Of a stretch of 64,000 nucleotides of DNA, positions 1,836 to 64,000 are shown in pieces (within the stretch, counting starts at the first letter, position 1; the number at the start of each line of letters is the position of its first letter). Source of the stretch: Escherichia phage DT57C; the sequence record NC_027356.1, one strand, 5' to 3'. The notes beneath the pieces are model-generated. The model did no database searches, was not told the DNA's origin, and saw only the letters and a list, made by a program, of their open reading frames with translations. Position numbers and translations under genes: made by a program.

Positions 1836-1843
1836 GCTAATCA

Positions 1844-1875: not shown

Positions 1876-1877
1876 AT

Positions 1878-1906
1878 TTGCTTTCAGCCAAAAATTTATA
1901 TATAAT
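1878..1906 (+). promoter_or_regulatory. T5-type sigma70 early promoter
   Basis: TTGCTT, 17-bp spacer, TATAAT; AT-rich upstream; conserved downstream AAATTTGAGAGAGGAG. Confidence 0.65.
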
Positions 1907-1934
1907 AGATTTGTAAATTTGAGAGGAGAAAGCT

Positions 1935-2147
1935 ATGAGGATTCATAAGGTAGATAAAGATCGTATCTATTTTGTTATGGACTCCGGAGCATATGGATCT
2001 ATTCTAAGAGAAGATGTTACTAAATTTTGCTTAGTAAATACTTGGATGGATAAGGAGAAGATTGACCCTAGATCAGGCATATGCTTATCGGAACCAGCTC
2101 TTTTAATTGCAAATGCAGAAATTGAATTGTTTGAGGACATAGAATGA
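1935..2147 (+). CDS. hypothetical protein (70 aa)
   Basis: ORF directly downstream of early promoter; ATGA overlap with the next ORF. Confidence 0.4.
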   Translation: MRIHKVDKDRIYFVMDSGAYGSILREDVTKFCLVNTWMDKEKIDPRSGICLSEPALLIANAEIELFEDIE

Positions 2148-2374
2148 AAAACGTAAAACACCTTAAATATCGTTTAATCTATAACGGACGTATGGAAACT
2201 GAAGAGCTAGCTCAATTAGCTATTAACTCTAATGAGGTTATGGTGCGTGCGCTAGCAATTGAAAAGTTGCGGGCTTCTTATGAAAGTCATATTATGGAAC
2301 TAGAGGAGAAACTTTATGGACTTCTCGAAGCCGAAGCTAGAAGCAATCCAGAGGACAGGCCTACTAAGCAATAG
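2144..2374 (+). CDS. hypothetical protein (76 aa)
   Basis: translationally coupled ORF. Confidence 0.4.
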   Translation: MKNVKHLKYRLIYNGRMETEELAQLAINSNEVMVRALAIEKLRASYESHIMELEEKLYGLLEAEARSNPEDRPTKQ

Positions 2375-2427
2375 AAGGTATGTATATGGGGAGTAATTTT
2401 ACCTCAAAACATTATCGAAGGATTTAA

Positions 2428-2700
2428 GTGAGGGATTGTACAGTGTTTTTGACTGGTAATACCAGTCAAGATATGATTATTGTGGTTGGTTGCTCTAACC
2501 AAGTAATTAACTTCTACTGGGAATTATTCCCTGTTCTTAACCGTACTGCTGCGAAACTTATGGTAGTTAACTACTATGATGTATCAGTATCCAACGGTAG
2601 AACTGGAATAAATCTTCAAGATTTAAGAGCTGTTAGCTATATGCTAGAATTTAGTCCAGATCTTGAAATGTGTAAAGCCCTACAACAATTTAAGGTGTAA
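2428..2700 (+). CDS. hypothetical protein (90 aa)
   Basis: ORF in early operon. Confidence 0.4.
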   Translation: MRDCTVFLTGNTSQDMIIVVGCSNQVINFYWELFPVLNRTAAKLMVVNYYDVSVSNGRTGINLQDLRAVSYMLEFSPDLEMCKALQQFKV

Positions 2701-2702
2701 AT

Positions 2703-3131
2703 ATGTTTAATAATGTATTCTCTAAAGAAGCTAACCCAATATTGGTTAATTTTTGGCGTACTCTTCCAGACAACCTGTACAATGAGGCTATTAATGCTCT
2801 GAAAATATGGTGTGAGAATAATGAAATCTCCTTTGCTTTTAAGGGTGAGATTGAAGAAGCTCCCTGTATTGGTTTAATTGTGCAGGTAGAGGATGATCTG
2901 GAAGAGATTGTCGGATGGAAAGAGTTGGATGAAATGGGATTGGTTTTTGCATTAAACTATAAGCTGTTTATGCCTAATAAACACCGTATTGTTGTTAATT
3001 ATAAAACCAGTGAATCTCCGGGCTTTCAAGTTAATGAACATTACGGTTGGTCTTACTCACCGGAAGAAGTAAATGATGGTATCCAAAGACTTCGTCGTTT
3101 TGGTTATCAAATTCCGGGTTTAACCGCCTAA
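2703..3131 (+). CDS. hypothetical protein, tandem paralog 1 (142 aa)
   Basis: shares PC(I/V)G, W.EL.EMGL(V/I).ALN..LF.P and Q(I/V)PGL blocks with the adjacent ORF. Confidence 0.55.
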   Translation: MFNNVFSKEANPILVNFWRTLPDNLYNEAINALKIWCENNEISFAFKGEIEEAPCIGLIVQVEDDLEEIVGWKELDEMGLVFALNYKLFMPNKHRIVVNYKTSESPGFQVNEHYGWSYSPEEVNDGIQRLRRFGYQIPGLTA

Positions 3132-3140
3132 GGGGGCACA

Positions 3141-3533
3141 ATGGAACAAGTATATTGGCGTCAGATTGATCCTAGTTTGGTGAAGCGTGCGGAGAAGCTG
3201 CTACAACGTTGGTTGGGGGTAAGACAAGCCTCCTTCACTTTTCCGGAGCAGCAAATAGACGATCCCTGTGTTGGTGTTTTCCTATCAGGCTACGCTAGGG
3301 AAGTGGAATTGGATTGGAATGAATTGTCTGCTATGGGTTTAATTGTTGCACTAAATTTCTCTTTGTTCCATCCACGTGGCTTGGCCATAAGTCGTGTGCC
3401 TGATGACGGTTGTTCGCCCCATCTTTTACAGGTGGAAGATGATATTTGGGAGTACCCTCCAGATATTCTCAAAGAAGCTAAAGAACAATTAAATCGTGTT
3501 GGGATTTATGTTCTAGGCCTGAATGATGAATGA
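3141..3533 (+). CDS. hypothetical protein, tandem paralog 2 (130 aa)
   Basis: paralog of 2703..3131 (same conserved blocks). Confidence 0.55.
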   Translation: MEQVYWRQIDPSLVKRAEKLLQRWLGVRQASFTFPEQQIDDPCVGVFLSGYAREVELDWNELSAMGLIVALNFSLFHPRGLAISRVPDDGCSPHLLQVEDDIWEYPPDILKEAKEQLNRVGIYVLGLNDE

Positions 3534-3624
3534 TTTTTATTAGCTGAACTCTAATTACCGAGTCATTTTGGCTCGGTTTTCTCTATGTTCAAAGACACTG
3601 GTAGCAGCCCCTGGAAAAATTTAC

Positions 3625-3653
3625 TTGCTTGATGCTCAAAATCTTGATATAAT
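3625..3653 (+). promoter_or_regulatory. T5-type sigma70 early promoter
   Basis: TTGCTT (3625-3630), 17-bp spacer, TATAAT (3648-3653). Confidence 0.6.
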
Positions 3654-3671
3654 ATTTATATTGAATTGAGA

Positions 3672-4249
3672 GACATTAGTAAAAATTGATTTTGCTAATT
3701 TTTCTTAGTGAAGCTGACAAGGGATTTACGGCGAGAGGAATCGATGACCCGTAAATAGCTGCATAAGGTACGTTGCTAGAGCTTTACGAAAAAGTTTTTT
3801 CTTGTTTACAATCCGCGATACGGAACAGTTAGGCTGCCCCATTAAGGGTTGTTTTAACTGTTACGTGTTAGTTTTTAAACAAATAGTTAATAGAATACTT
3901 AGCGATCTACACCCCGTAGGAACCCTGGTAAGGCCTCGAAGCAACCTAGTGTGAGGTGGTTGTGAAGTGAGACGGGAAGAGTGAAAAACTCTGAGAAGTG
4001 ATGACGTAAGGTATACTGCATCTAGTATGAGCTAGTACATGAAGCATTAGGTGAGCAAATCTGGCTTAGCGGCCATCCTCAAGGATTTGTGCGGTATAGT
4101 GAAGCGGCAGTGTAGCGTGAAAGTGGAAGTTGCCACCCCACTTCAGTATTTGCGATTAATTTGTTGAGAAATTGACAGTAACAGTTGTTCTATTCTTTCT
4201 GAATAGTCCTAAAGAAAACTTATTTCATTTCCAACACAGGAGTATTGTT
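3672..4249 (+). other. long ORF-free leader; candidate structured RNA or origin-proximal region
   Basis: about 580 bp between a consensus promoter and the next CDS with no ORF of 60 aa or more in any frame; purine-rich GTGAAG-like repeats. Confidence 0.3.
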
Positions 4250-7039
4250 GTGTTTTCAATCCTACAAGGTCATGCAGGATTTCATCGCGATTTAGCCACA
4301 GGCAATTGGCGAGAAGTTAAAGCAGAAGATTATCTTTTTGCTAAAAGATTTTCCTCAAAGCATCCTGAAGGTAAACCAGCTTCAATGCCCTTCAAGTTTG
4401 ATGTAATTGATGAAGTTGATCCTCAAACCCTAGTAGAAATGCTCCCTCTTATGAGACGTTTAACGTCTGATCCTCATATCGTTGCGGTACGAGGTCGATG
4501 TCTTGCACCTAAAAATAATGTGCGGCGTAAGAAGGGCAACTTTAATGTATCTAATCCTAGTAGTATTATTGCTATGGACGTGGATGGTATTGTAGATACA
4601 GGTGGTTGTAACAAGTTTGATCTTGTTGGCATGGCTCGTCATATTATTAGGATGTTAAATAGTATTAGTGAGGATATGTTTCCTCTTGATGCAGGGTTTA
4701 TTGCTCATGCATCGTCTTCGGCTGGGCTAAAACCAGGTATCCGAATGCACTTAATACTAGAATCTAATGTTAAAGTAACTCAGGGTCAAATCAAGTTCTT
4801 ATTTACATCTATCAACGAAAGTAGTAGACAAAAGTATGGCTTTGATATTGCCGACTTAGCTTATTACTCTTCCGTACAGCTCCATTACTTTGCAGATCCT
4901 TTATTTACCGATGGTATAGTTGATCCGTTTAAAGCGGAGGGTGCTTCACGTCTGGTATTTGTTAAAGGCTCAAAAGTAAATTTACCTAATAATCTAGTTG
5001 ACTATGAAACAACTAGAGGGGAGTTTAAAGAGGAATTCTATTCTTTACTCGACCAAATTAAAGGTAAAAAAGCTGCTTCTGATAAAGTAGAGGAAACTAT
5101 CAGTGAGCTAGAAGAGGCTGATGATGGGGTATACTTACGTATTATTCCAAAGCTATATCACCGAGCGTTAGAGGATGGGGTAGATTTTGGTTGGCTAGAA
5201 AAAGAAATCCGCCCAGCTTTATCAGAATATATTGCAACTAAAGATAATAGCCGTAATATTCAAGACTACTTTAACAACGGTCGAAAACAGGCTCTGAAAG
5301 CATTTGTTAATAATTCTAAACGTGATATACCCGATGTTTTAAAAGGTATTCCGCTTAAAAAGCTAGAAACTAATTCACTAGAGACCGACAACTTCTTGAA
5401 ATTAAATACTGTACCACCAGAAGGCTATATGACTTTTGTAAAAGCAAGTCTAGGTACAGGTAAAACCACGGCTGTTGTGCGTTGGTTAGATTCAGGAGTT
5501 ATTAAAGGTAATTTCTTAGCAATTACCAACACTAGAGCACTGGTATCTTCAAATGCTAAGAAATTTAGTGCAGGACAATACGATAAGTCTGTAGATATGC
5601 TTAATTTTAAGCGTGGTGCTATTGACCGTATGTCCACAACCATTCACTCTTTGCATAAGTTTAAGAGTTTTATTGGTCAAATTGATGCAATCTTTATAGA
5701 CGAATGTGATGCAGTAATGAATGACCTATTATTCGCCCCCGTTGTTAAACAACGTCGTGAGTGTATTCAGGTTCTTCGTGATATTCTTGCAACTGCAAAA
5801 ATCATTATACTATCCGATGGTGACATTAGTTCTGAGACGATTGAAGCATATGGTTCTTTGATTGAGTTCGATAAACCAGTTGCATTCTATAATCACCACC
5901 GTAAAATGCTGTCAAAAGCTCATGCTTATGAGTTCCCTGATGAGTCCAGTATTTGGGTTGCACTTCAGACCTCTCTAGAGATGGGTGAGAAATCTATTCT
6001 AGTATCTGATTGTGGCCCAGATGAGCTGAATGAGAAGGGTATGGCACTACGTCGTAATACTGGTGCATTAGTTAAAGAAATCCATTCAAACTCCACTTCA
6101 GATGTGGATATTCGACGTATTCTGGATTATACAACTAATGAGCTAATTGATCAACAAATTGATTGCTTATTATGTAGTCCATCCGTAACGAGTGGAGTTG
6201 ACTTTAACTATTTTGATAACGTATTTGTTATTACTAGAACCAGTAATCAGGCGCCAAACATGCGTTTCCAAGCAATCAGGCGCGACCGTGGTGCTCAGAA
6301 TATCTATTATTTTATTGATAAATCCACTAGTGGATTCTCTGCAGGTTCTGAACAATATAATATTGATGAAGGTTGGCTGGAGTTAGCGCAGCAATTATAT
6401 GCACGTCGCAGGGAGCTGGAATCTAGAAACTATACTAGTACTTTACGTTATTACTTGCTTGATCAAGGTGCAACTATTGATATTTTCAGTGAAAGCTGGG
6501 GAACTATTGAAGGTGCTGGTAAAGAATACACAGAAGAGCGAATCAAAGCTATTCTGCACTCAACTCCTGATTATTGTGCTCCACGTCATGCGGATGCGTA
6601 TGAGGCTAAACTACTTATTGTTCGCTATTATCATCTTGAGTCTATTAAAGATGTAACAGTTGAGCATGTTGAACAATATATCAAAGATAAGCCGAATGAT
6701 CGAGCTGCATTCTTCCATAAGATGCACGAGATGTTCTGGGAAGATATTAAGAAGTGTTCAAATGTGACCATTAAACCATTCATAGAAGCTCTGAAAGGTA
6801 AGAAGAAAGATTTCTTCCTTAAAACGGGTCAGAGTGCTAACCCAAAATATGCTAGAATGTATCTTGGTATGATGGGTATTGGTAAAGATATGAACACGGA
6901 GAATATCGTAGACTGGTACAGAACCTATTGTAAAATCGAGTGTATGCCAATTCCTTTCAAATTTATGACAGAGGAAGAGAAGGCTATGGCAGAAGAAGCA
7001 ATGTCAGAGCTAGGTGCTAGAAATGACAGTGAAGAATAA
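4250..7039 (+). CDS. putative replication origin-binding protein / SF2-type helicase (P-loop NTPase)
   Basis: Walker A GTGKTT, Walker B FIDECD, motif VI-like QAIRRDRG; probable GTG start at 4250 with GGAG 7 nt upstream (track ORF opens at 4172). Confidence 0.65.
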   Translation: MFSILQGHAGFHRDLATGNWREVKAEDYLFAKRFSSKHPEGKPASMPFKFDVIDEVDPQTLVEMLPLMRRLTSDPHIVAVRGRCLAPKNNVRRKKGNFNVSNPSSIIAMDVDGIVDTGGCNKFDLVGMARHIIRMLNSISEDMFPLDAGFIAHASSSAGLKPGIRMHLILESNVKVTQGQIKFLFTSINESSRQKYGFDIADLAYYSSVQLHYFADPLFTDGIVDPFKAEGASRLVFVKGSKVNLPNNLVDYETTRGEFKEEFYSLLDQIKGKKAASDKVEETISELEEADDGVYLRIIPKLYHRALEDGVDFGWLEKEIRPALSEYIATKDNSRNIQDYFNNGRKQALKAFVNNSKRDIPDVLKGIPLKKLETNSLETDNFLKLNTVPPEGYMTFVKASLGTGKTTAVVRWLDSGVIKGNFLAITNTRALVSSNAKKFSAGQYDKSVDMLNFKRGAIDRMSTTIHSLHKFKSFIGQIDAIFIDECDAVMNDLLFAPVVKQRRECIQVLRDILATAKIIILSDGDISSETIEAYGSLIEFDKPVAFYNHHRKMLSKAHAYEFPDESSIWVALQTSLEMGEKSILVSDCGPDELNEKGMALRRNTGALVKEIHSNSTSDVDIRRILDYTTNELIDQQIDCLLCSPSVTSGVDFNYFDNVFVITRTSNQAPNMRFQAIRRDRGAQNIYYFIDKSTSGFSAGSEQYNIDEGWLELAQQLYARRRELESRNYTSTLRYYLLDQGATIDIFSESWGTIEGAGKEYTEERIKAILHSTPDYCAPRHADAYEAKLLIVRYYHLESIKDVTVEHVEQYIKDKPNDRAAFFHKMHEMFWEDIKKCSNVTIKPFIEALKGKKKDFFLKTGQSANPKYARMYLGMMGIGKDMNTENIVDWYRTYCKIECMPIPFKFMTEEEKAMAEEAMSELGARNDSEE

Positions 7040-7256
7040 AAAATGGGAAACAAGGAAGTTTCCAGTAAAAGAACGTAAAGTTCCTGTTTACGATACTTCG
7101 GAAAAGCTATGTAGGGTGGTACCACCTAGATTAGCTGGCATCCCTAACATATCCGAGTGGTTACTTAAACAACGGAGGACTAGCGTATCCCTTCGCATAG
7201 GGTTTGAGTTAGATAAAGTATATGCTGAACTTTCTTCTTTGCTCAAAGAATCATAA
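7014..7256 (+). CDS. hypothetical protein (80 aa)
   Basis: ORF overlapping the 3' end of the preceding gene. Confidence 0.3.
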   Translation: MLEMTVKNKKWETRKFPVKERKVPVYDTSEKLCRVVPPRLAGIPNISEWLLKQRRTSVSLRIGFELDKVYAELSSLLKES

Positions 7257-7265
7257 AAAATTTAT

Positions 7266-7294
7266 TTGCTTTCAGGAAAATTTTTCTGTATAAT
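7266..7294 (+). promoter_or_regulatory. T5-type sigma70 early promoter
   Basis: TTGCTT, 17 bp, TATAAT, then ATAAATTTGAGAGAGGAG. Confidence 0.65.
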
Positions 7295-7325
7295 AGATTC
7301 ATAAATTTGAGAGAGGAGTTTAAAT

Positions 7326-8030
7326 ATGGCTGGTTCTCGCAGAAAGAAACATATCCATGAAATCCCGGATGAAGTCTTTAAAAAGGTTATAGAGCATCTG
7401 GAGAACGGTGGTACTAAGAAAGCAGCATGTGAAATGCTCGGCGTATCATCCAATCCGACTATGGAAAGGATGATAGAAGAGTGGCAAGATCGCCAAATTC
7501 AAGTTGCCGAGATGAAGAAAAAGAAACGTGGCACACTCATTGAAGGCATCGAGTTAGCTAACGTTATTGAACAGTATTTATCTGGTGATTCTTTTGAAGA
7601 GATTGCCGATCGTAATTACCGCTCTGTAGCAATGGTTAAATCTGTTCTGGAACGATATGGTGCTCTACTTCGTTTAAACGATATTGTAGACCCGTTGAAT
7701 CCACCAATTATTCCTGATGATGCTGTAGCAGAAGAATTTGAAGTAGGTGAGCTAGTTTGGGTTCCTGGATACCAGTGTATCGGTGAAATCAAAAAAGCAA
7801 TGGATAATCCTGTTGGTTGTTACCGTGTATGGCTTCTATCAGAAGGCAAACAACAGAACGTTCATTATATGAATTACGAGCTGGCTTCTGTTAAACATCT
7901 GGAAAAGCTAGGGGTTGACGTAAAATCTCTGGGGTATAAATGGTCCCGGGAAGAAGTTATCACACTGATTAACGAAGCTGTTAAGGCTGCCTTGAAACTT
8001 GATAAAGAAAAAGGAAAACGCCGTGAGTAA
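7326..8030 (+). CDS. hypothetical protein with N-terminal helix-turn-helix-like segment
   Basis: 234 aa; GTKKAACEMLGVSSNPTMERMI resembles an HTH. Confidence 0.55.
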   Translation: MAGSRRKKHIHEIPDEVFKKVIEHLENGGTKKAACEMLGVSSNPTMERMIEEWQDRQIQVAEMKKKKRGTLIEGIELANVIEQYLSGDSFEEIADRNYRSVAMVKSVLERYGALLRLNDIVDPLNPPIIPDDAVAEEFEVGELVWVPGYQCIGEIKKAMDNPVGCYRVWLLSEGKQQNVHYMNYELASVKHLEKLGVDVKSLGYKWSREEVITLINEAVKAALKLDKEKGKRRE

Positions 8031-8274
8031 ACTAACTGATTTGCTTAAAGATGGGGAAGTAAAAACACTATATCGTAGAAGCTGGGATAACGATAATAAC
8101 GGCTTAGTGTTACTAACTTTAGATGCTGACTCGGATGTAGTTACTCAACATACTTGGGTAGCCGGTAACTATCCATATAGTGAGATTGTTTCATTAACAG
8201 TATGCGAAGCTGTTGCAGACGATTGGGAGATTGCCAGCATTGATGATATGCTCGCTGTTGGCCTGGTGGAGTAA
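8023..8274 (+). CDS. hypothetical protein
   Basis: probable GTG start overlapping the upstream stop; RBS AAGGAAAA; track ORF opens at 7999. Confidence 0.4.
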   Translation: MSKLTDLLKDGEVKTLYRRSWDNDNNGLVLLTLDADSDVVTQHTWVAGNYPYSEIVSLTVCEAVADDWEIASIDDMLAVGLVE

Positions 8275-55873: not shown

Positions 55874-55985
55874 TTGGGAAATCTCGAAATTTCATAAGAT
55901 TACACATGGAGGTGTGCTCACCGCCGGAGGCGAAAATACTTAGTCTGCTAACCGCCACCCCCCGTTACTATTACTCTGCTAACTA

Positions 55986-56018
55986 TTTCACCTTGCAACC
56001 ATTTTAATTGCAAGGTGA
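55986..56018. terminator. bidirectional hairpin terminator between convergent operons
   Basis: 12-bp perfect stem TTCACCTTGCAA/TTGCAAGGTGAA. Confidence 0.6.
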
Positions 56019-56038
56019 AACAAATTCAACTGTAATTA

Positions 56039-56773
56039 TTACGCTACTTTTAATTTCTCAATATATTGTTGTGGGCTGCAACTATATTCTGCGCGCTCCT
56101 CCTCGGTCATACCTTCCCAACATAATTGCAAGCGGTCGGCTAGGAACTGATAATCATTATCATCTTCAAGAGATTCATCAATAAAGGTTTCGCCGATCAA
56201 TGTGACGCCTATTGATAGAATATCGTTAACGGCTTGCGCGTCCAGCGTTTTAAATCCATATGCCGCCGCCGCTGATAATACGCCTTTATGATCATCAATC
56301 ATCGTGAAATCAGCGTTCGGATATAGCTGTTTGAATAGCTCAAAATAATGGCTTTTATATATAGCGTCTTTACTGTGGTATATTTCGCTAACCTTATCAG
56401 CCGTAAAATATTTGTGAAGTGTATCGCGGGAAAATACGCGGATATTGCTATTCCCACGCCCTCGCAGACCTTGTTTGCGCAAATAATAATAATCCGACTT
56501 ACTCATCAGGCGAGCGGTGCAAATAATGTTTAACGTGTTGGCGTCATTCATGCATTGGCGCATATAGGTAACGAGCGGCAAAAGCGTATCCTGCATTATT
56601 AACTCATGTTTGCACGCTTCATTTTTATACTTATTTAAATCTAAATCGCCTTCAATATCAAAGCAAGGCGCTACACGGTGGGCGGAGTTAATGATCGTGC
56701 CGTCCAGATCCCAAATCATTACGCGGGAAATATGCGGGTAATTGCGGGAAATATTCTTTTTATCTTGATTCAT
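56039..56773 (-). CDS. dmp: 5'-deoxyribonucleotidase (HAD family, T5 Dmp-like)
   Basis: 244 aa; HAD motif I DLDGTI; size and position match T5 dmp (memory). Confidence 0.7.
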   Translation of the reverse strand: MNQDKKNISRNYPHISRVMIWDLDGTIINSAHRVAPCFDIEGDLDLNKYKNEACKHELIMQDTLLPLVTYMRQCMNDANTLNIICTARLMSKSDYYYLRKQGLRGRGNSNIRVFSRDTLHKYFTADKVSEIYHSKDAIYKSHYFELFKQLYPNADFTMIDDHKGVLSAAAAYGFKTLDAQAVNDILSIGVTLIGETFIDESLEDDNDYQFLADRLQLCWEGMTEEERAEYSCSPQQYIEKLKVA

Positions 56774-56847
56774 TTTGTTACGTTCTCCATTAAAGGGATT
56801 AAGTTAATTTAATCCAGCCCATACAGTGGGCTGGAGTATTTCAGTCA

Positions 56848-57249
56848 TTAAAATACCAGACCATAAGCCAAAGCATCAGCGATAACAGTAATATCCTCGC
56901 CAGATACACCGGAACGAATACCGGCGCATGTAAATACCTTCGCGCTCATTAACTGATCATCAAGACAAGCGGGGCAAGGCGCGACAACTGCGAAAGCTAA
57001 ACCAGCTTTTGCGGCGTCAATAATAGTCGTTTCTTGTTTCATCGTATCAATGTAAACGCCTTTCGCCTTGATGCGGCTAGATAGCTTGCCCGTGGTGTAG
57101 GCGAAAGTAGTGATCTGTAGCGCCTCATTAAATTCGATTAAGTCATCAACAACGTGCCCCGCCTCGACGTGATAGCGCTCACCGGTAGAATAAACTAGGA
57201 CGATTGCAGACTGCGCGCGATCGAATGGGATACGGTTGTAAGTAGTCAT
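56848..57249 (-). CDS. pre-early hypothetical protein (133 aa)
   Basis: ORF with the conserved pre-early leader/RBS motif. Confidence 0.45.
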   Translation of the reverse strand: MTTYNRIPFDRAQSAIVLVYSTGERYHVEAGHVVDDLIEFNEALQITTFAYTTGKLSSRIKAKGVYIDTMKQETTIIDAAKAGLAFAVVAPCPACLDDQLMSAKVFTCAGIRSGVSGEDITVIADALAYGLVF

Positions 57250-57318
57250 GCGTATAACTCCAATTAATTTAATAAACTTTTATGGCGGCGGTATATTTCG
57301 CCCGCCCGCCTGATTTAT

Positions 57319-58983
57319 TTACGCGAAAAATTTGCCGTTTTTAAAGTCGATTAACGTGCGCTGCCCGTTTGCATATGTAATTACATGCGTTTGCGTCCAG
57401 CTTGATGCGCCGACGTTGTAGCCCATATCGAGGCTGCCCGATACGCCAGCAGTATATACGCCGCCGTAAATGCTGGCGGTATGGGTGTGCCCCGTGTTTA
57501 ATTTGCCCAACTTTTTAAATTGCTTCGGATTGCCGCGGCTCCCGTTGATGCCGTTGTGACCGTGTACGCCGCACTCAATGCCTGCAATCTTGAATGATTG
57601 ATCAGTCGTTAGGAATATGGCGTTAAACTCACAGCCTGCAACCTTGCGCAGCGCATAATCCAGCACGTTGAAAGTATCGTCATTTTCTGCAATAGCTCCA
57701 TAGATCGCGGCGTTGAGGCGGTGATATAGCTCTGCGTTTGCTGGATCGTCTTTAATGTTAGCGTTGCGATCATCCAGCCAACGGGATAACGCCAGATCGT
57801 GGTTTGACTCAACAATGATTGTTTGCGAGAAATCGCGCTCCATTGATTCCAATACACGCCCCGTGTCGATAAGATCATCTAAAACCTTATCACGTCCGGC
57901 GGCGTACTGTTTTGCTAGGAATACGCCAGATGCGCGATTGTGGTGGTTGCGTGATGTAAAGTCATGCACATCATGCACGAACTGATATTTAGGTTTAAGA
58001 ATATCAAGCAAACTATTTTCGCCCGCCCATGACGCTTCAGCACACGCCTTATCTAATTTTTCAGCGTGCACGTCGCCATACTGTAAACCTAAAACATGCC
58101 CCGATGTTTCATAACATCCGGCGGGAGTGGCGCAAATATTCAAATCATAAAAAACGCCGGTTTCATCCATCGTCTCAAGCTGGCGAACAAAAAATGCCCC
58201 GTCCTCGTCAAACTCGACAATCAGCGCGCCAAAGTTATGTAACGCTTCGGCCTTTTGCCCTGCTTTCTGCTGAATGTAGTTTTTTAGCGTTGCCGCTCCC
58301 GTTGAGTACATACGGCGCACTACTTCACCTTTGAGCGCTGGAACGCTTTCTGCGGTGATTTTAGCTGCTCCAATTGCCAAACCTTCAAGATCAAGCGCTG
58401 TTGCAGTCTCAGCGAATCCAGAAAGCGGGTAGTCTGCCGTTGGCAAAACATTAATCTCAGCCATGAAAGCAAAGCGGCGACTATTTAAAAACACGTTTTT
58501 ATTACAGATATATTTATCAAAAGCGGAATCATATTTGATCCCGTCCGCACCTTCTCCATTCTGGAATCCTTTTTTGTTATAAATGAACTTGCTAACCAGC
58601 AAATCAGCGCCGATAAATTGGGCGTAATGTTCAAGTGAGGCTAAAAAGTTTTTATGCGGGAACGTGTTGTTCTGGATTGATGTTATAATGAAGCGTTTGC
58701 CCTGCTTTACTTCCCACTGTTCAACCGTGCTAGAAATAATTCCCGCCGCCTCTGGGCGCTCGTCGTTTTTAACGGCTTTTGATGCTTTCGCCTCTTTTGG
58801 TTTCGCTGGTTTGTTTGCTTCCAGCCAATCACAAATTGCGGTCGAATGTTTTGCCGTATCGTACACCGCTTTTGATATATCGTCGCAGACTTCCAATCTA
58901 GTAGCGCGCAGACGTTTACCGTAAAAATTAAAATCAGCGGCCAGCTTCAGGATAACGGTTTGTTTTTCTGCGGAAATAACCAT
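57319..58983 (-). CDS. A1: A1-like pre-early protein (metallophosphatase-fold nuclease-like)
   Basis: 554 aa (T5 A1 is about 556 aa, memory); metallophosphoesterase-like motifs GDVHAE, GHNG, GHTH. Confidence 0.65.
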   Translation of the reverse strand: MVISAEKQTVILKLAADFNFYGKRLRATRLEVCDDISKAVYDTAKHSTAICDWLEANKPAKPKEAKASKAVKNDERPEAAGIISSTVEQWEVKQGKRFIITSIQNNTFPHKNFLASLEHYAQFIGADLLVSKFIYNKKGFQNGEGADGIKYDSAFDKYICNKNVFLNSRRFAFMAEINVLPTADYPLSGFAETATALDLEGLAIGAAKITAESVPALKGEVVRRMYSTGAATLKNYIQQKAGQKAEALHNFGALIVEFDEDGAFFVRQLETMDETGVFYDLNICATPAGCYETSGHVLGLQYGDVHAEKLDKACAEASWAGENSLLDILKPKYQFVHDVHDFTSRNHHNRASGVFLAKQYAAGRDKVLDDLIDTGRVLESMERDFSQTIIVESNHDLALSRWLDDRNANIKDDPANAELYHRLNAAIYGAIAENDDTFNVLDYALRKVAGCEFNAIFLTTDQSFKIAGIECGVHGHNGINGSRGNPKQFKKLGKLNTGHTHTASIYGGVYTAGVSGSLDMGYNVGASSWTQTHVITYANGQRTLIDFKNGKFFA

Positions 58984-59080
58984 AATATTAAAACTCCATT
59001 AAAGGGATTAAGAACGTTTGTTATTGGCAAATATTGCCAAATATAACGCTGCTTATTAACAGCGTTATAATTTGCAATAC

Positions 59081-59326
59081 TTAACTGATCGGCATCAGGC
59101 TAGAACTAACACCACAAACAACGGCGGTAATAAAACAAAATAAGCCTAAACGCTTTGCTAACTTTGATTTGCGTTTAAAGTAATATGAATCCAGATCATT
59201 CTGGAAATAAGCGAACAATAATGAGGCCGCTACAATAAATAAACCTAGAATTAACGATTCAGTGGGATAAAAGATCATTTTAATAATTCCAGTTAAAGGG
59301 AAATTATAGTGGGGAATATTCCCCAC
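59081..59326 (-). CDS. small membrane protein (81 aa, two TM helices)
   Basis: two hydrophobic segments. Confidence 0.45.
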   Translation of the reverse strand: MGNIPHYNFPLTGIIKMIFYPTESLILGLFIVAASLLFAYFQNDLDSYYFKRKSKLAKRLGLFCFITAVVCGVSSSLMPIS

Positions 59327-59335
59327 TAATTAAAT

Positions 59336-59752
59336 TTATTCACCTGCGGATTGTTTTACTTCATCTGCTACGCCTAGTAATTGCGCTACGGCGTCCAGCG
59401 TTTCTAATTTTGCGCTTTCCAGACTTGCCAGATCGTCGGCGTCTTTGATAATGCCGGAATCAATGGCATGTTTAGCAATAACGCGCACATAATGCGCCTT
59501 GCGGATTGAACTACCGCCGCCAACTTTGCGCGGTTTATCGCTTTTCTGATACGCTTTTGCGCTGGTCAATTTTGAGCGAACAGACACAGGGGAAGTAGCG
59601 CCCACTGTTTTGGCGATCTCTTTCAGGCCGTCGCTGTTTGCGAACTCTAAACCGTTTTCATTGATTAATTGCTGATACATAGAAACGGCTTTTTGGGTAT
59701 TTTCTTCATTCCATGCAAATTTTGCGGATTTTTCGGTTTTAACGTTAGTCAT
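59336..59752 (-). CDS. pre-early protein with KL(T/R)K-G module; possible A2-like DNA-binding protein
   Basis: 138 aa; module LKEIAKTVGATSPVSVRSKLTSAKAYQK related to repeats of 11674..12441 and 8378..8788. Confidence 0.45.
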   Translation of the reverse strand: MTNVKTEKSAKFAWNEENTQKAVSMYQQLINENGLEFANSDGLKEIAKTVGATSPVSVRSKLTSAKAYQKSDKPRKVGGGSSIRKAHYVRVIAKHAIDSGIIKDADDLASLESAKLETLDAVAQLLGVADEVKQSAGE

Positions 59753-59809
59753 GGTATAAACTCCAATTAATTTAATTTAAGGGATAAGATTAACATAATG
59801 TTAATCGTT

Positions 59810-59839
59810 ATATTTCCCCAATAGTTCGGGGAAATATAA
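59810..59839. promoter_or_regulatory. 11-bp-stem hairpin preceded by 15-bp palindrome TTAACATAATGTTAA
   Basis: TATATTTCCCC/GGGGAAATATA inverted repeat between two pre-early genes; palindrome at 59791-59805. Confidence 0.4.
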
Positions 59840-59852
59840 AGTTAACACTAAA

Positions 59853-60104
59853 CTATGCTACAGCTTCCAATTTTTCGTTACGTTGAACAACTTTTACAAC
59901 GTCGCCAGATTTAACGCGAACACTAAAAACGGTTTTTCCGTTGTTGCTACGTTCCGTTTCTGCATATACTGCATCAATTACATCGAACGGCATGAGCGCC
60001 GCGCCTTTGATGCGTTCGGCCTTTCCGGTTGCCTCGTCTGTTTTAGTAACGAAAGGGATGAAAACGGATTGACCAATTTTTGGCGCGGTGATAGCGTTTT
60101 TCAT
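59853..60104 (-). CDS. pre-early hypothetical protein (83 aa)
   Basis: ORF with conserved leader/RBS; promoter-like TTGACG, 17 bp, TAAAAT upstream on the minus strand near 60305-60335. Confidence 0.45.
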   Translation of the reverse strand: MKNAITAPKIGQSVFIPFVTKTDEATGKAERIKGAALMPFDVIDAVYAETERSNNGKTVFSVRVKSGDVVKVVQRNEKLEAVA

Positions 60105-60341
60105 GGTATAAACTCCAGTTATTTGATGGATTGTTCCGCATTACCTGCTAAAAAATAATAACAGGTAATAAGAAAAAATCCGCTCACCGTTAAAATCAAT
60201 TTAAGGAACTCCACACAGGCCGCTATATCCCGTTAGGGGGCGGGGCACATTATGGCAAGTACCGGCCGTCAAATTTTACCAAGTTATCGCTCTTGTTGAA
60301 TCGGGTACATTTTAAAGCCTATCGGCTAGGGCGTCAAATTA

Positions 60342-60509
60342 TTTTTCGTTTTCTTTTAAATTAGAATTCTCCCAACTGAATTGCATCTCGCAAAATATTT
60401 TCCCATCTTTATGATGGTAAGCGATCTCGCTCCCGTGGTTAGCACAGAAAGCGATCACTGCCTCAGCTTGTTCTACCGTGATATTGTTGGCCGTTTCTTT
60501 GATTTTCAT
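60342..60509 (-). CDS. small hypothetical protein (55 aa)
   Basis: translated codon by codon; strong RBS AAGGAGA 6 nt upstream of ATG; below the ORF-track cutoff. Confidence 0.4.
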
Positions 60510-61135
60510 ATCGTCGTCTCCTTATAAGGTTAATAAGTTTGCCGCCGATGGGCTTTAAAATGCACCTGATTTTTAAAGAGCGCGGCGGTAAACTTTCCGC
60601 CGTGTAGTTCGTCATTGCCGCCCTACGAGATAAATAATAGGGAATACCCAAAAAAGGTGCAACCTTAATTTTGTAAAGAAATGTAAAGAAAGCAAATACC
60701 CGCACCGCGTCCGGCGATCGCCCAAGTTTAAAGGAAACAGGCGCGCGGATACCATAAAACCGAGCTGATTGGCAAGTAATTTTTTCATTTTTATTTGCCT
60801 TGCCCTACTTGACAAAACTTAAAAAGCTCGTGGTGACGATAAACGGGCTATCCCTTTATGATGGGATACCTGAAAAATTTACCGCGTTGTAGGACGTTTT
60901 AGGCCGCTTATCTTCGATTTAACAAATATTTAACAAAAGCAAAATTGAAAAATAGTTTGAGAAGGTATTGACTTTTTAAAATCAAGACTAAACGAGTTAT
61001 TTTAAAAAATTAATTAATTGACTTTTATTTGTTGTTGTGTAGTAGAAAGATAGCAGACTAATAATTGCTAGAATGATAATCATGCTGGTGATTGTAACAG
61101 ACTGAACTATTAGCAGACTACTGATCCCGGAAAAT

Positions 61136-61175
61136 CTCATTAGCCAACTAACTATCTCATTAGCCAACTAACTAT
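61136..61175. repeat. 20-bp direct repeat, 2 copies
   Basis: CTCATTAGCCAACTAACTAT twice in tandem. Confidence 0.8.
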
Positions 61176-61185
61176 TTCATAAGTT

Positions 61186-61365
61186 ATAATAACTATAAAA
61201 ATAATCACCGTTAAAATAATCACTATAAAAATAATCACCATTAAAATAATAACTATAGAAATAATCACCATTATAATAATCACCATTAAAATAATCACTA
61301 TAAAAATAATCACCATTAAAATAATCACTATAAAAATAATCACCATTATTATAATCACTATAAGA
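61186..61365. repeat. 15-bp tandem iteron-like array, 12 units
   Basis: alternating ATAATCACCATTAAA and ATAATCACTATAAAA units. Confidence 0.9.
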
Positions 61366-61401
61366 AACTATCGGCTTAAGTGAGAACCACTATCATTTAA
61401 G

Positions 61402-61510
61402 TTATCCACAACGTTATCCACAGCACAAAATGATTTGACACGATAGGCGGCGATATAAAGATTTATCCACAGACTTATCCACAGGTTATCCTACTGTATA
61501 TTTATCCAGG
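61402..61510 (+). promoter_or_regulatory. DnaA-box cluster A (4 perfect TTATCCACA plus 2 degenerate)
   Basis: TTATCCACA at 61402, 61414, 61463, 61475; variants TTATCCTAC and TTATCCAGG. Confidence 0.7.
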
Positions 61511-61880
61511 GTAAAAAGATAGTGTTTACAACTGCAATCAATTTTGAGCGGCCTAAAACGCTTTCTAACGAGCTGATCGCTGTAGGGTAATATTAAAGTA
61601 AAGCCTTTACCCGTCGGCCTAGAGGCTTCGCCGTGTTTTGCTCTTTACTGCACCGCTGCGCGGTTAGCATAAAACTAGGTGTTAGGCAAGAAAAATAAAA
61701 AGTAAAGTAAACGTTGCCCCTAGAAAGAAAATAATTTTACCGGTAACATCGAAAGCGGGTAATAATTAACCTAATGTAAAGTTTTGTAAGGCCCGCCATA
61801 ATCAGCGGCCTTTTTTGTTATACTGCCCTTACACCGTTTAAGGACGGTTAAAAATTTCCCGAAAAATTTGGAGGCTTAAA

Positions 61881-62060
61881 ATGGTTATTTTTCGATCTAT
61901 TCTGGCGGGTATCTTGGGCGCTATTTTAACTCTATTTGCTACCGCTTACGGTATTCAAGATTCTTATTGCGGTTTAGTAAATACTAAACCTATGGTTATT
62001 ATTGGCGCGGGTATCGCTGTTTTTTCTTATTTGCTGGGCTGCATGAATAAAGGAGAATAA
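61881..62060 (+). CDS. small membrane protein (59 aa)
   Basis: RBS GGAGG; two hydrophobic segments; first ORF of a coupled small-gene cassette. Confidence 0.4.
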   Translation: MVIFRSILAGILGAILTLFATAYGIQDSYCGLVNTKPMVIIGAGIAVFSYLLGCMNKGE

Positions 62061-62062
62061 AA

Positions 62063-62275
62063 ATGATCCGCAACGTTTCTCTTGCTCGTTCCAAAGGTTT
62101 TAAGCTGGTGGATGTAAACACGTTCGAGCGTCCTGGTTGTAAAATCGAATATATAGCGCGGAATAAAAACGCTTTCCGCGTTACAGAAAAGAGATTCGAT
62201 AAACGCGGCAACGTGATAGCTGAAACGGTTAAATATTTTGCCACCTTTTACGCGGCCTTTCGTGGGGTATTATGA
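62063..62275 (+). CDS. hypothetical protein (70 aa)
   Basis: track ORF; RBS AAAGGAGAA upstream. Confidence 0.4.
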   Translation: MIRNVSLARSKGFKLVDVNTFERPGCKIEYIARNKNAFRVTEKRFDKRGNVIAETVKYFATFYAAFRGVL

Positions 62276-62397
62276 AGAGCGTTGTTATTGTTATCCTTGC
62301 AATGGTTGGCGGTTTTACCACCACCTTGTTTAGAAATGATCCTCTTTTGCTAGGGATCTTTATGCTTTTATCTGGTTATCTGATCGGGAGGTTATAA
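62272..62397 (+). CDS. small membrane protein (about 41 aa)
   Basis: ATGA overlap with the upstream ORF; hydrophobic; my manual reading of this stretch disagreed by 1 nt with the ORF track, so coordinates are approximate. Confidence 0.25.
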   Translation: MKSVVIVILAMVGGFTTTLFRNDPLLLGIFMLLSGYLIGRL

Positions 62398-62398
62398 A

Positions 62399-62743
62399 AT
62401 GGTGATTTATGAAGGTGATCGCCTTGTTGCTGATTGCCGTCCGGCATTGTTAGCAAACTACTTAAACCAGCTTTCGCCAGTATATAAAGGCGTTATAAAT
62501 ATTTATGAAGGCGGGGCGCATTATAAGATTAATGCGGTCGTTGCCCGTGAACTAGCGTTTCAATTTTTAACCTTTTCATCTTGCAATATTCAGGTCATGG
62601 GTGAGGCGTTAATTGCAGAAAATGAAGATGATTTTATTAATATCTTTCGCAAGATATGCACCGAGCGCCTGATAATGAAAGGGGCATATATTCAATCCAC
62701 TGCGGATAGTATTGAAACGGCTTTTCGAAAGGTGGCACAATGA
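62399..62743 (+). CDS. hypothetical protein (114 aa)
   Basis: track ORF; coupled start; no recognisable motif. Confidence 0.45.
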   Translation: MVIYEGDRLVADCRPALLANYLNQLSPVYKGVINIYEGGAHYKINAVVARELAFQFLTFSSCNIQVMGEALIAENEDDFINIFRKICTERLIMKGAYIQSTADSIETAFRKVAQ

Positions 62744-62881
62744 AGCTATATATTTTCGCGGGTAATGTTGAGGCTGCAAATGATTCCGCTGGTGGCGATA
62801 GCGTTCGCCATTATTGGCAAAATTATATTTACTAGGCGTAATGATCACGGGGCACAACTATCAGGGAGTGCCCCTGATTCT

Positions 62882-62904
62882 CAAATGAGAATGATTCTCA
62901 TTTG
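62882..62904. promoter_or_regulatory. perfect 23-bp palindrome, operator-like
   Basis: CAAATGAGAAT-G-ATTCTCATTTG; same AATGAGAAT core as the 23-bp tandem array. Confidence 0.6.
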
Positions 62905-63079
62905 ACCGCGCCCGCGATGGTTAGCACACTAATGATTAGGGTGTTACGTGTCGCCTTGTGTGATCGTTAGCGGGCTAACTAATTTTCAAGCCTCCTCCAG
63001 ATTTGCCCTTGTTTTAGTATCCCCATCAAAATAAAACGCGTTAGAAAGCGATTCAGGGCGTTTTAGGCCTATATTAGAA

Positions 63080-63208
63080 TTATCCACTGCGTAGGAATAC
63101 TGTATATTTATACAGTAGAATAACCTGGGGATAAGTCGGTGGATAACGCTTCAAAATGGCTAGAATTTTGTCAAGGCAAATCGTGCTGTTGATAAGTCTG
63201 TGGATAAC
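63080..63208 (-). promoter_or_regulatory. DnaA-box cluster B, inverted relative to cluster A
   Basis: TTATCCACT at 63080 (+); minus-strand TTATCCACC (63138-63146) and TTATCCACA (63199-63207); 17-mer TTATCCACAGACTTATC shared in inverted orientation with 61463-61479; 8-bp-arm inverted repeat at 63099-63116. Confidence 0.65.
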
Positions 63209-63230
63209 TTAAATAACAGTGTTTCTCACT

Positions 63231-63502
63231 TCCGTTTTTAAATGCGAATCATTATCATTTGCATTCCACTTCTTAAATGAGAATCATTTCACTTCTTGAA
63301 TAGTTCTCATTCCCTTTCTTAAATGAGAATCATTTCACTTCTTGAATAGTTCTCATTTCACTTCTTGAATAGTTCTCATTCCACTTCTTAAATGAGAATC
63401 ATTCCACTTCTTAAATGAGAATCATTCCACCTCTTAAATGAGAATGATTATCATTCGCATTCCACTTCTTAAATGCGAATGATAATCATTCTCATTCGCA
63501 TT
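63231..63502. repeat. 23-bp tandem array (8 units) with palindromic flanks
   Basis: units CCACTTCTTAAATGAGAATCATT and TCACTTCTTGAATAGTTCTCATT in order A-B-A-B-B-A-A-A at 63266-63449, flanked by AATGCGAAT...GCATT palindromic elements. Confidence 0.9.
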
Positions 63503-63510
63503 CCGGCGAG

Positions 63511-63526
63511 CAGGGCAATTGCCCTG
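63511..63526. repeat. 16-bp perfect palindrome
   Basis: CAGGGCAATTGCCCTG. Confidence 0.8.
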
Positions 63527-63530
63527 CGCT

Positions 63531-63755
63531 TATGTGCAAATCCGACAATTGCTCCAAGGGTTACGCGAGGGCATGTATGTGCAAATCCGACCCATTTTTT
63601 GGTAGTGTGCAAATCCGACCCCAAAAATTTATAAATTCGTGAGAGTGACAAATCTGTCTCCCAAAAACTCCAGCAATCACGAACTGCGTTCGAATCCTGT
63701 GGGGTATGTGCAAATCCGACACGGTTTTTCTAGGATTAAGATGTGCGAATCCGAT
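63531..63755 (+). repeat. dispersed direct repeats of a 13-16-bp motif (4 perfect plus 1 variant)
   Basis: (T)ATGTGCAAATCCGAC at 63534, 63579, 63607, 63708; variant GTGCGAATCCGAT at 63743; each followed by a short T- or A-run. Confidence 0.8.
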
Positions 63756-64000
63756 GAAATTTTTGTGACTTCGATGAGAGGGTGTGTGATTGTATAGGTT
63801 TGAGGAGAAGATGAGAGAGCGAGAAAAATTTTGGGGCTAGAAGTGTATGGGCGCAGGATTGGTGCGGAGCACCTGATTTGCGGGGGTTTTGGGGGATAGT
63901 GGAGATAATTTGGGGAAATTTGAGATAGGTGCAGAAAAAGTAAAATTTTATTAGCTAAAGGGGGCAATATAGCTTGACAATTGAAAATTCTTGTGGCTCT

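Follow-up and report, generated by a model that had tools for sequence, protein, structure and literature searches.

The halt of phage T5 DNA injection after about 8% and its later restart have posed a question since the 1960s, and the mechanism of pausing was still called poorly understood in a PNAS paper of June 2026. Two-step transfer has been proven experimentally only for T5 and BF23 (Davison 2020, bioRxiv 10.1101/866236). The pause takes place in vivo without protein synthesis and does not occur in FhuA liposomes in vitro (Davison 2020, 10.1101/866236, citing earlier work), a combination that fits a pre-existing host factor. The same preprint describes 131-bp repeats with eight paired boxes in 25 phages, including DT57C, for which it gives an arm distance of 1,851 bp; the hypothesis that DnaA binding pauses DNA entry is likewise already published. 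The preprint traces the first notice of the boxes to 1987 (its ref. 6) and the nomenclature to Wang et al. (its ref. 5), and a fuller account is found in Davison's earlier papers.

The window, that is, the whole 64,000-nt stretch of DNA analyzed here, is almost certainly the right genome end of a T5-like phage of the DT57C/DT571/2 type (99.9% overall identity to DT571/2), and the region at 61402-63208 can with equal assurance be regarded as the conserved right half of the T5-family terminal repeat, a known feature that has been described previously. An initial sequence-only reading had placed this region inside something resembling a terminal repeat, and this is borne out, as the end of the window corresponds both to DT571/2 positions 1-8085 and to the last 8,085 nt of that genome, with 8,083/8,085 nt identical to both copies (two mismatches). 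The same reading located it in the first-entering part of the genome, which is true of the identical left-hand copy, but the copy in the window is the right-hand one and enters last. In this T5-like (Demerecviridae) genome, the long terminal repeat carries the region on the right-hand side of dmp, A1, and A2, and the T5 record carries an annotated injection stop signal at the equivalent place. It is the published prime candidate for the T5 stop signal, to which the flagged architecture adds nothing new; the LexA-like box at the inner end of each arm is one possibly unreported detail. Altogether, the best explanation of the locus is that of T5-type terminal-repeat arms with pre-early genes between them, together with the proposal that the arms are landing pads for host proteins, and a rough probability of 0.9 is given to this reading as a whole.

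Table 1. Positions of the features discussed, in window coordinates
Feature	Position	Strand	Remarks
Terminal repeat, right-hand copy	55916-64000		Carries dmp, A1, A2, and the studied region
AT-rich tandem array, 12 copies of the 15-nt unit ATAATCACYWTWAAA	61186-61365	+	17% GC; just outside the left arm
Left arm, IRC-spacer-IRD ("Repeat Region 2" of T5)	61378-61509	+	Four consensus DnaA boxes; conserved TTGACA in spacer
LexA-box-like TACTGTATATTTATCCAGGG, inner end of left arm	61492-61511		CTG-N10-CAG kept; 21.1 bits
Terminator-like hairpin with T6 run (61790-61816), then extended -10 promoter candidate TGTTATACT (61816-61824)	61790-61824	+	
59-aa protein, two membrane helices, T5.013 ortholog (98% identical)	61881-62060	+	phrog_5607
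70-aa basic protein, T5.014 ortholog (93% identical)	62063-62275	+	Present in 24/24 T5-like genomes, truncated in L010
41-aa hydrophobic membrane ORF	62272-62397	+	phrog_19184; in 14/24 T5-like genomes, 41-47 aa
114-aa protein, T5.015 ortholog (AAS77062), 89% identical over 114/114 aa	62399-62743	+	phrog_4379, 1.8e-62
Two overlapping small frames: 31-aa ORF (62740-62835) and T5.016 remnant	62740-62905	+	Neither with a clear coding signature
Strong hairpin (62843-62879), then palindrome (62881-62905)	62843-62905	+	Hairpin -20 kcal/mol, no T run
Near-consensus LexA (SOS) box TACTGTATATTTATACAGTA, inner end of right arm	63098-63117		25.7 bits
Right arm, IRD'-spacer-IRC'	63100-63231	-	Four DnaA-type boxes on - strand
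Tandem array of 23-nt units (63262-63462), its right end overlapping a perfect inverted repeat with 25-nt arms (63437-63461, 63472-63496)	63262-63496	+	

Inverted-repeat arms and their motifs

The two arms are imperfect inverted repeats of 132 nt each, separated by 1,590 nt and complementary at 101/132 positions (77%), which agrees with the family pattern of repeats of about 131 bp set 1.8-4.3 kb apart. Both have the same module order, running inward from an outer conserved block through a DnaA-box pair, a 40-nt stretch with TTGACA, a second DnaA-box pair, and 8 nt to a LexA-like palindrome. In both arms, the starts of paired boxes are 12 nt apart (a 3-bp gap) and those of successive pairs 61 nt. 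On the left, the boxes at 61402-61410, 61414-61422, 61463-61471, and 61475-61483 are all exact copies of TTATCCACA on the + strand; on the right, all boxes are on the - strand and comprise three one-mismatch boxes (TTATCCCCA at 63126-63134, TTATCCACC at 63138-63146, and TTATCAACA at 63187-63195) and one exact TTATCCACA (63199-63207), so that five exact and three one-mismatch boxes stand in pairs at a fixed distance. Exact TTATCCACA is found five times in the window, always inside the two clusters, versus 0.67 expected by chance. The earlier description of two inverted clusters of consensus boxes is correct as to their orientation and the four exact boxes on the left, but the right cluster has a single consensus box, since only one of the five exact copies lies on the - strand. 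Likewise, the inverted 17-mer said to be shared by the clusters is present, but it is merely the best-matching stretch of the 132-nt inverted repeat.

The element agrees with the IRC-spacer-IRD and IRD'-spacer-IRC' repeats of T5 in its place within the terminal repeat, in the length of its arms (132 vs 131 bp), in having four boxes per arm with 3-bp gaps and a constant spacing between pairs, and in the tandem repeats at its flanks; the distance between the arms also fits the 1.85 kb given for DT57C. The left arm has four perfect boxes where T5 has lost one, and otherwise nothing essential differs. Tandem repeats and palindromes also flank the right arm near the repeat boundary, with the arm 769 nt from the repeat end. 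The arms align over their full length to T5, SPC35, and BF23-type arms, and counterparts of the right arm occur in 537 phage records, among them phages of Klebsiella, Pectobacterium, and Vibrio. Both are present in the same orientation in 24/24 distinct related genomes examined, where orthologous arms are 78-97% identical across genomes and the two arms within one genome are 73-79% identical in every case. An invertible or mobile segment was considered and rejected, as no recombinase occurs among the ORFs, orientation is fixed in all 24 genomes, and the arms show no homogenization; the initial view that this is not a conventional mobile element stands. The idea that the arms mimic a host locus was also rejected, with no match in 5,426 E. 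coli genomes. With E. coli oriC, datA, and DARS the arms have in common clustered high-affinity 9-mers in two oppositely oriented sets, whereas the phage sets are 1.7-4 kb apart and keep a register of 12 bp.

Among 192 boxes compared, 139 have at most one mismatch to TTATCCACA and 187 at most two. Positions 1, 2, 4, 8, and 9 are nearly invariant, and variation is found at positions 3 (A/T) and 5 (any base), plus position 6; that at positions 3 and 5 coincides with the degenerate sites of the DnaA consensus TTWTNCACA. Column conservation is 0.92 in the boxes, 0.965 in the LexA-like elements, and 0.84 in the other arm columns. Judged from these alignments, the variation is what DnaA would be expected to tolerate, and the selective constraint fits DnaA.

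The right-arm palindrome TACTGTATATTTATACAGTA matches the LexA consensus TACTGTATATATATACAGTA at 19/20 positions and is the sole match in the window with three or fewer mismatches (0.01 expected). It has the CTGT-N8-ACAG core, AT-rich spacer, and TA flanks of a LexA operator, and a LexA matrix scan of the window ranks it first and the left-arm box second. It is probably the "palD" of the T5 literature, and it is kept in 24 relatives and in Klebsiella phage Roth49, with a more degenerate form in a Vibrio phage. At the left-arm position, most relatives carry TACTGTATAAATATACAGGG instead of TACTGTATATTTATCCAGGG. In IMG/VR, the LexA-like element is found only on T5-like contigs. Like E. coli SOS operators, the phage site combines CTGT-N8-ACAG with an AT-rich center; it differs in being a site known from sequence, in a strictly lytic phage, with no recognizable promoter over it. 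A scan whose generic promoter counts did not exceed those of shuffled sequence gave no convincing promoter over either LexA-like site. The right-arm site is closer to the LexA consensus than are the E. coli chromosomal operators with which it was compared. A LexA reading of the palindromes is mentioned neither in the Davison 2020 preprint nor in the other papers that could be searched. A conserved LexA-like operator beside DnaA boxes provides the stop-signal hypothesis with a second host-factor candidate that is easily tested.

Proposed host-protein landing pads and alternative readings

The arms are probable landing pads for pre-existing host DNA-binding proteins, which would be DnaA for the eight boxes and, probably, LexA for the palindromes. 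Neither would have to be newly made in order to load on the double-stranded DNA as it enters. Lying just inside the entry-pause point, the right arm would belong to the injection stop signal, keeping the first-transferred DNA held or anchored until its release by A1 and A2; the left arm would act as a secondary or redundant copy, and the genes between the arms would be passengers rather than the reason for the arms. That host proteins on the arms pause DNA entry is put forward tentatively, at somewhat less than even odds. More doubtful is a fuller version in which each arm would be a composite pad of four DnaA sites and one near-consensus LexA operator, with Fur-box-like repeats just outside the right arm, and in which T5-like phages would build a plug or anchor of host proteins on the incoming DNA that would set the pause. 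The Vibrio phage shares only 49 nt with the window, which comprise exactly the LexA-like palindrome and a DnaA-box pair between flanks that cannot be aligned, and this overlap speaks for host rather than phage factors.

Type 4 T5-like phages have no left arm (Davison 2020, 10.1101/866236). A T5 mutant with a deletion from hegG to 017, the reads of which are deposited as ENA PRJEB104473, sample ERS28155444, is viable and forms small plaques. On T5 coordinates, the interval from hegG to 017 takes in the left arm together with all the genes between the arms, which means that a bracket arrangement is not essential, and the mutant suggests that T5 can dispense with the genes and probably with the left arm as well. 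DH5alpha, the strain on which T5-like phages have been propagated (host field of the record), is recA1. Cleavage of LexA as a required restart signal was rejected on these grounds: if the propagation host is recA1, phage growth on it means that LexA cleavage is not required for the second transfer step.

It is also possible, though unlikely, that the arms are recognized by phage proteins, with a dimeric A2 acting together with A1 on CTGT-N8-ACAG or on the outer block to restart transfer or cut DNA, the likeness to DnaA and LexA sites being secondary. The second transfer step depends on A1 and A2, the latter of which binds double-stranded DNA (Davison 2020, 10.1101/866236). Moreover, the A2 gene is located about 1.6 kb to the left of the region, and the conserved arm blocks (AGTGAGAAnCACT..ATTTAAG) and spacer TTGACA match none of the host motifs considered. 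However, the pause precedes any phage protein synthesis, and a 19/20 LexA match, the top two LexA scores in 64 kb, and a DnaA-like pattern of box variation could hardly arise by chance. In addition, A2 has no detectable family or solved relative (Pfam, PDB sequence search), and Pfam gave nothing significant for A1 either.

Less probable again is that the arms are transcriptional insulators or roadblocks, which would keep RNA polymerase off envelope-threaded DNA or the A1/A2 operon, or tune pre-early expression. The two ends of a rightward transcription unit carry boxes of opposite orientation, and the last ORF is followed, before the right arm, by a hairpin at the place of an annotated T5 terminator. 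Box-bound DnaA reportedly blocks transcription in an orientation-dependent manner, a finding credited to Schaefer and Messer in 1989. However, in the window as in T5, 180-300 nt separate the left LexA-like box from the nearest promoter candidate downstream of it, a distance too great for classical repression, and the arms are kept in phages with quite different gene content and direction between them.

A DnaA-dependent replication origin or DnaA-titrating element made of the left arm and the AT-rich 15-nt array is very improbable, despite the oriC-like layout of four consensus boxes 37 bp from a 180-bp array with 17% GC. T5 and many relatives lack the array or carry a different one, whereas a DnaA-dependent origin would be expected to keep a conserved AT-rich unwinding element beside its boxes, and the hegG-017 deletion mutant of T5 still replicates. 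Low-affinity arrays in oriC have an 11-bp register, as against 12 bp here. T5 origins are near the genome center and replication genes are not on the first-transferred DNA (Davison 2020, 10.1101/866236), which also leaves the replication or partition locus of the sequence-only reading without support. Most improbable of all, and already disfavored, is that an old inverted duplication left the repeats as a neutral relic with no present function: the left arm is seemingly dispensable in the laboratory, but the likeness between arms persists in every genome despite rearranged and replaced DNA between them, their motif columns are the most conserved, and the composite motif survives in a Vibrio phage whose flanks no longer align.

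Pre-early genes, transcription signals, and flanking repeats

Between the arms, the sequence-only reading had recognized five translationally coupled small ORFs, the coordinates of which hold; successive ORFs are joined by gaps of 2 nt and 1 nt at the first and third junctions and by ATGA overlaps at the second and fourth. Shine-Dalgarno sequences are found on four of the five, the 41-aa ORF having only a weak one. The statement that none has a recognizable motif is out of date, as all five match PHROG families and two have published phenotypes. Expression of T5.013 leads to toxicity, with membrane damage or a lysis-like effect (Annor et al. 2026, bioRxiv 10.64898/2026.04.02.716235), and T5.015 is an Ung-binding, Ung-dependent AP-site endonuclease that nicks abasic sites, as described for the T5 protein only (Mahata et al. 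2021, PMC8201957). By homology, the 114-aa protein here is a T5.015-family, predicted Ung-dependent AP-site nickase. RefSeq and PHROGs put this label on the 70-aa T5.014 ortholog, which is probably a numbering mix-up; UniRef names the 114-aa protein "DNA-(apurinic or apyrimidinic site) endonuclease", and because of these UniRef names the published nickase is assigned, indirectly, to the 114-aa ORF. The T5.015 family is narrow. Pfam gave nothing significant for any ORF frame tested, a PDB sequence search found no relative of the 70-aa and 114-aa proteins, and the single-sequence AlphaFold2 model of the latter (pLDDT 40) was unusable.

The T5.015 ortholog is present in 24/24 genomes, always with 114 aa, and its variable columns by codon position number 34/17/91, compared with 10/8/49 for the T5.014 ortholog. 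The 41-aa ORF (14/7/21) is not found in T5 itself but occurs in SPC35, BF23, and others, and the 31-aa ORF (4/6/9) is intact in 8/24 genomes. The T5.016 remnant uses a different frame (62765 or 62780 to 62905) that matches the N-terminus of T5.016, with its membrane helix kept. Relative to T5, the order and tight coupling of T5.013, T5.014, and T5.015 are retained, whereas T5.011, T5.012, and T5.017 are missing, T5.016 is truncated, and the extra 41-aa ORF separates 014 from 015, an arrangement shared with SPC35 and BF23. The cassette is neither special to this phage nor an insertion; comparison with T5 and relatives identifies it as a cut-down T5 011-017 block, since genes have been lost relative to T5 (T5.011, T5.012, most of 016, and 017). 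A host-takeover module had been suggested, and this is correct in part, as the ORFs belong to the pre-early DNA transferred in the first step and include at least two host-directed effectors (T5.013 and T5.015). The flagged ORFs are ordinary, partly characterized pre-early genes and can be set aside.

Transcription of the cassette probably starts at the TGTTATACT promoter candidate, as predicted from its sequence. In T5 and SPC35, TGTTATAAT is found in its place; a terminator before the cassette is annotated in T5, and a predicted promoter is annotated there in BF23. A generic promoter and terminator scan gave counts no higher than in shuffled sequence and missed the terminator annotated in T5, and an Rfam search of 60300-64000 returned only chance-level microRNA and CRISPR-repeat matches. 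Outside the right arm, the 23-nt repeats share the core AATGAGAATCATT and are probably one of the T5 direct-repeat families DRC/DRD/DRE, and the 25-nt inverted repeat has Fur-box-like sequences. Outside the left arm, the AT-rich array has no counterpart, or a different one, in T5 and several relatives, and the - strand ORF annotated on it as "repeat completion protein" is probably spurious. The palindrome behind the last ORF, first given as 23 bp, is indeed perfect but 25 bp long (12+1+12, TCAAATGAGAAT-G-ATTCTCATTTGA), the 23 bp being its inner part, and its central base is G as opposed to C in DT571/2.

The injection-stop repeats and their genomic setting

The window's final 8,602 bases are the right end of the 108,418-bp record of Escherichia phage DT571/2 (Tequintavirus, T5-like), except at 62893 and 63084, the sole two differences within these 8.6 kb. 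Identity over 61000-64000 is 99.9%, and 55916-64000 corresponds to both copies of the 8,085-bp DT571/2 terminal repeat. Protein clusters give the name of DT57C, the sibling phage. It follows that the window covers the right-hand 64 kb of a DT57C/DT571/2-type genome, with the flagged region inside the right-hand terminal repeat; the left-hand copy, identical to it, is the DNA entering the cell first.

The sequence-only reading had described clusters of DnaA boxes, an inverted repeat, small ORFs and a palindrome here, and all of these are found. Exact TTATCCACA occurs five times in 64 kb (0.67 expected), always within the two clusters. Four perfect boxes, all on the + strand, make up the left cluster; the right, on the - strand, has one perfect box and three with one mismatch. 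Boxes are paired in both, with starts 12 nt apart within a pair (3-bp gap) and 61 nt from pair to pair. The inverted 17-mer is present but is merely the core of a 132-nt inverted repeat, whose copies (the left and right arms) are complementary at 101/132 positions, and the perfect palindrome after the ORFs measures 25 bp rather than 23.

The element is not new: it is the already described T5 injection-stop repeats, and its identity as a T5-family terminal-repeat element is secure. The T5 record annotates an 'injection stop signal' across the equivalent right-hand region. The Davison preprint 'Phage T5 two-step injection' (bioRxiv 10.1101/866236) reports 131-bp inverted repeats in the terminal repeat, shared by 25 T5-like phages, DT57C and Gostya9 among them, and names IRC-spacer-IRD Repeat Region 2 and IRD'-spacer-IRC' Repeat Region 3. 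Its boxes, eight in all and classed as DnaA or near-DnaA, stand 'always in pairs separated by 3 bp', and the spacer is constant. It gives a DT57C arm distance of 1,851 bp and credits a 1987 paper with the first DnaA boxes in this region.

Among the neighbouring repeats, the GCGTTTTAGGCCGC... family prolongs the inverted symmetry of both arms toward the centre, with an extra copy left of the AT-rich array, and is probably IRB/IRB' in T5 nomenclature. The 'repeat completion protein' CDS is no more than a translation of that array and probably no real gene. The five TGTGCAAATCCGAC copies may be tied to the terminal-repeat boundary.

Features of the terminal-repeat region and the genes between the arms
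Feature	Position	Remarks
Perfect 7-1-7 Fur-like box TGATAATCATTATCA	56148-56162	Inside dmp coding region
GCGTTTTAGGCCGC... short repeats	60884-60919, 61536-61570, 63039-63069	Third short family
CDS over AT-rich 15-nt tandem array	61152-61358	- strand; annotated in DT571/2 as 'repeat completion protein' (68 aa, MIIIMVIIFIVII...)
Left arm	61378-61509	
Outer AAGTGAGAAnCACTnTnATTTAAG blocks	61378-61401, 63208-63231	
TTGACA between box pairs	61436-61441, 63170-63175	
LexA-like box TACTGTATATTTATCCAGGG	61492-61511	Inner end of left arm
Intrinsic terminator	61790-61816	Retained; extended -10 element directly after
59-aa ORF		T5.013, 98%; two membrane helices
70-aa ORF	62063-62275	T5.014, 93%; 24/24 genomes, one truncated; variable columns per codon position 10/8/49
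41-aa ORF		No T5 counterpart; 14/24 genomes; annotated in SPC35, BF23
114-aa ORF	62399-62743	T5.015, 89%; 24/24 genomes, constant length; variable columns per codon position 34/17/91
31-aa ORF		Unannotated in T5; overlaps truncated T5.016 in a different frame
Palindrome, 25 bp	62881-62905	
LexA-like box TACTGTATATTTATACAGTA	63098-63117	Inner end of right arm; 19/20 positions as in LexA operator consensus
Right arm	63100-63231	
23-nt tandem repeats	63262-63462	
One-mismatch Fur-like boxes (two)	63439-63453, 63480-63494	In perfect 25-nt inverted repeat right of right arm
TGTGCAAATCCGAC, five copies	63533-63757	Last 500 nt ahead of terminal-repeat end

Genes between the arms

The five small, tightly coupled ORFs between the arms (the cassette) are ordinary pre-early genes. 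T5.011 with its promoter, T5.012, T5.017 and most of T5.016, all present in T5, are missing from the DT57C-type phage, which makes the cassette a shortened form of a conserved block and not an insertion. The extended -10 element after the terminator (TGTTATACT here, TGTTATAAT in T5 and SPC35) is a likely candidate for the cassette promoter. The ORFs of 70 and 114 aa occur throughout the family set. No clear coding signature is seen in the 31-aa frame, nor in the overlapping T5.016 frame.

The T5.015 product is an Ung-binding protein that nicks DNA at abasic sites and brings host replication and division to a halt (PMC8201957); lysis-like damage follows expression of T5 gene 013, and toxicity is also recorded for 015 (bioRxiv 10.64898/2026.04.02.716235). 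The earlier suggestion of a host-takeover module was thus partly right, with toxic effectors among the T5 orthologs of these pre-early genes, but the feature was already known. Names conflict in this block. RefSeq and PHROGs (phrog_4227) call the 70-aa T5.014 family 'endonuclease nicking abasic sites generated by host uracil glycosylase Ung', whereas papers assign the Ung-dependent enzyme to T5.015 and UniRef places the AP-endonuclease name on the 114-aa protein. A numbering mix-up is likely, because T5.014 is 'ORF015' in a second T5 record.

Conservation of the arms and a proposed host-factor model

A family set drawn from IMG/VR and GenBank comprises 24 distinct T5-like genomes, every one of which has both arms, always pointing the same way with respect to the T5.015-like gene. 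Identity is 78-97% between orthologous arms and just 73-79% between the two arms of any one genome; segment inversion and arm homogenisation are therefore both absent across the set. The arm distance here, 1.85 kb, is the joint shortest, others reaching about 4.1 kb. Matches to the right arm come from 537 phage records, among them Klebsiella, Pectobacterium and Vibrio phages.

Among the 192 boxes of the 48 aligned arms, 139 differ from TTATCCACA by at most one base and 187 by at most two. Positions 1, 2, 4, 8 and 9 are nearly invariant; changes concentrate where the DnaA consensus TTWTNCACA is degenerate, at position 3 (A/T) and position 5 (any base), with position 6 varying as well. This is the pattern that selection for DnaA binding would give, and the best computational support for it, short of proof. 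The outer blocks and the TTGACA stretch, conserved in each arm across the 24 genomes, match no recognised binding motif.

The inner end of each arm carries a LexA-like box. The right-arm box is the window's only match with up to 3 mismatches (0.01 expected). Under a matrix of 19 E. coli operators, whose scores are approximate, the right (25.7 bits) and left (21.1) boxes rank highest in 64 kb, the third match scoring 15.0 and the best across 20 shuffles 18.7. The LexA-like element is the best-conserved portion of the aligned arms and occurs in both arms of most relatives. Klebsiella phage Roth49 has it at 19/20 in each arm, and a Vibrio phage carries the form TACTGTTTATTTATACAGTG. In IMG/VR, the composite of the LexA-like box with a DnaA pair was found solely in T5-like contigs (95-123 kb). 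LexA and SOS are absent from the Davison preprint, and the literature searched, with several older T5 papers outside its scope, held no link between LexA and the T5 terminal repeat; priority is not claimed.

The T5 pause, the stop after first-step DNA transfer, has a mechanism termed 'poorly understood' in a June 2026 PNAS paper. Membrane-associated DnaA has been proposed to capture the boxes, so that DNA entry stalls (bioRxiv 10.1101/866236). Under the host-factor model, proteins that the cell already contains would dock on the arms; the right arm would form part of the pause signal, with the left as a secondary copy. This is the favoured reading of function, though a tentative one, with a probability of roughly 0.35-0.4. 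Motif-specific conservation within the arms counts in its favour, as does the occurrence of the pause without protein synthesis but not in FhuA liposomes (Davison, bioRxiv 10.1101/866236, citing earlier work). Alternatively, the phage proteins A2 and A1 would bind the arms, A2 being an obvious alternative ligand. The motif composite nevertheless persists in the Vibrio phage with flanks otherwise unalignable, which host factors of conserved specificity would explain better than a co-evolving phage protein. Against the host-factor model, the left arm and cassette genes appear dispensable: a T5 mutant deleted from hegG to 017 remains viable and forms small plaques (bioRxiv 10.64898/2026.04.02.716235), and presumably lacks the left arm too, since this arm lies at 6098-6228 in T5, between hegG and 011. 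Other rivals see the arms as transcriptional roadblocks, as sites of a replication origin or DnaA titration, or as a neutral relic. For the host-factor model, the LexA-like element offers a cheap new test.

Fur-like sequences and palindrome centres

All Fur-box-like sequences of the window lie inside the 8-kb terminal repeat; when as many as 3 mismatches are allowed, the 19-mer Fur consensus has 4 matches against 0.10 expected. The dmp box may reflect coding constraint, because T5, BF23 and Stitch have it too. A core common to the 23-nt tandem repeats and the 25-bp palindrome, AATGAGAAT(C/G)ATT, agrees with the Fur core at 11/13 positions. The exact central base of this palindrome, 62893, is G here and C in DT571/2, and the centre of the LexA-like palindrome switches between AA and TT among relatives, never AT or TA. 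Both flips fit a template-switch mutation inverting the hairpin loop in one step.
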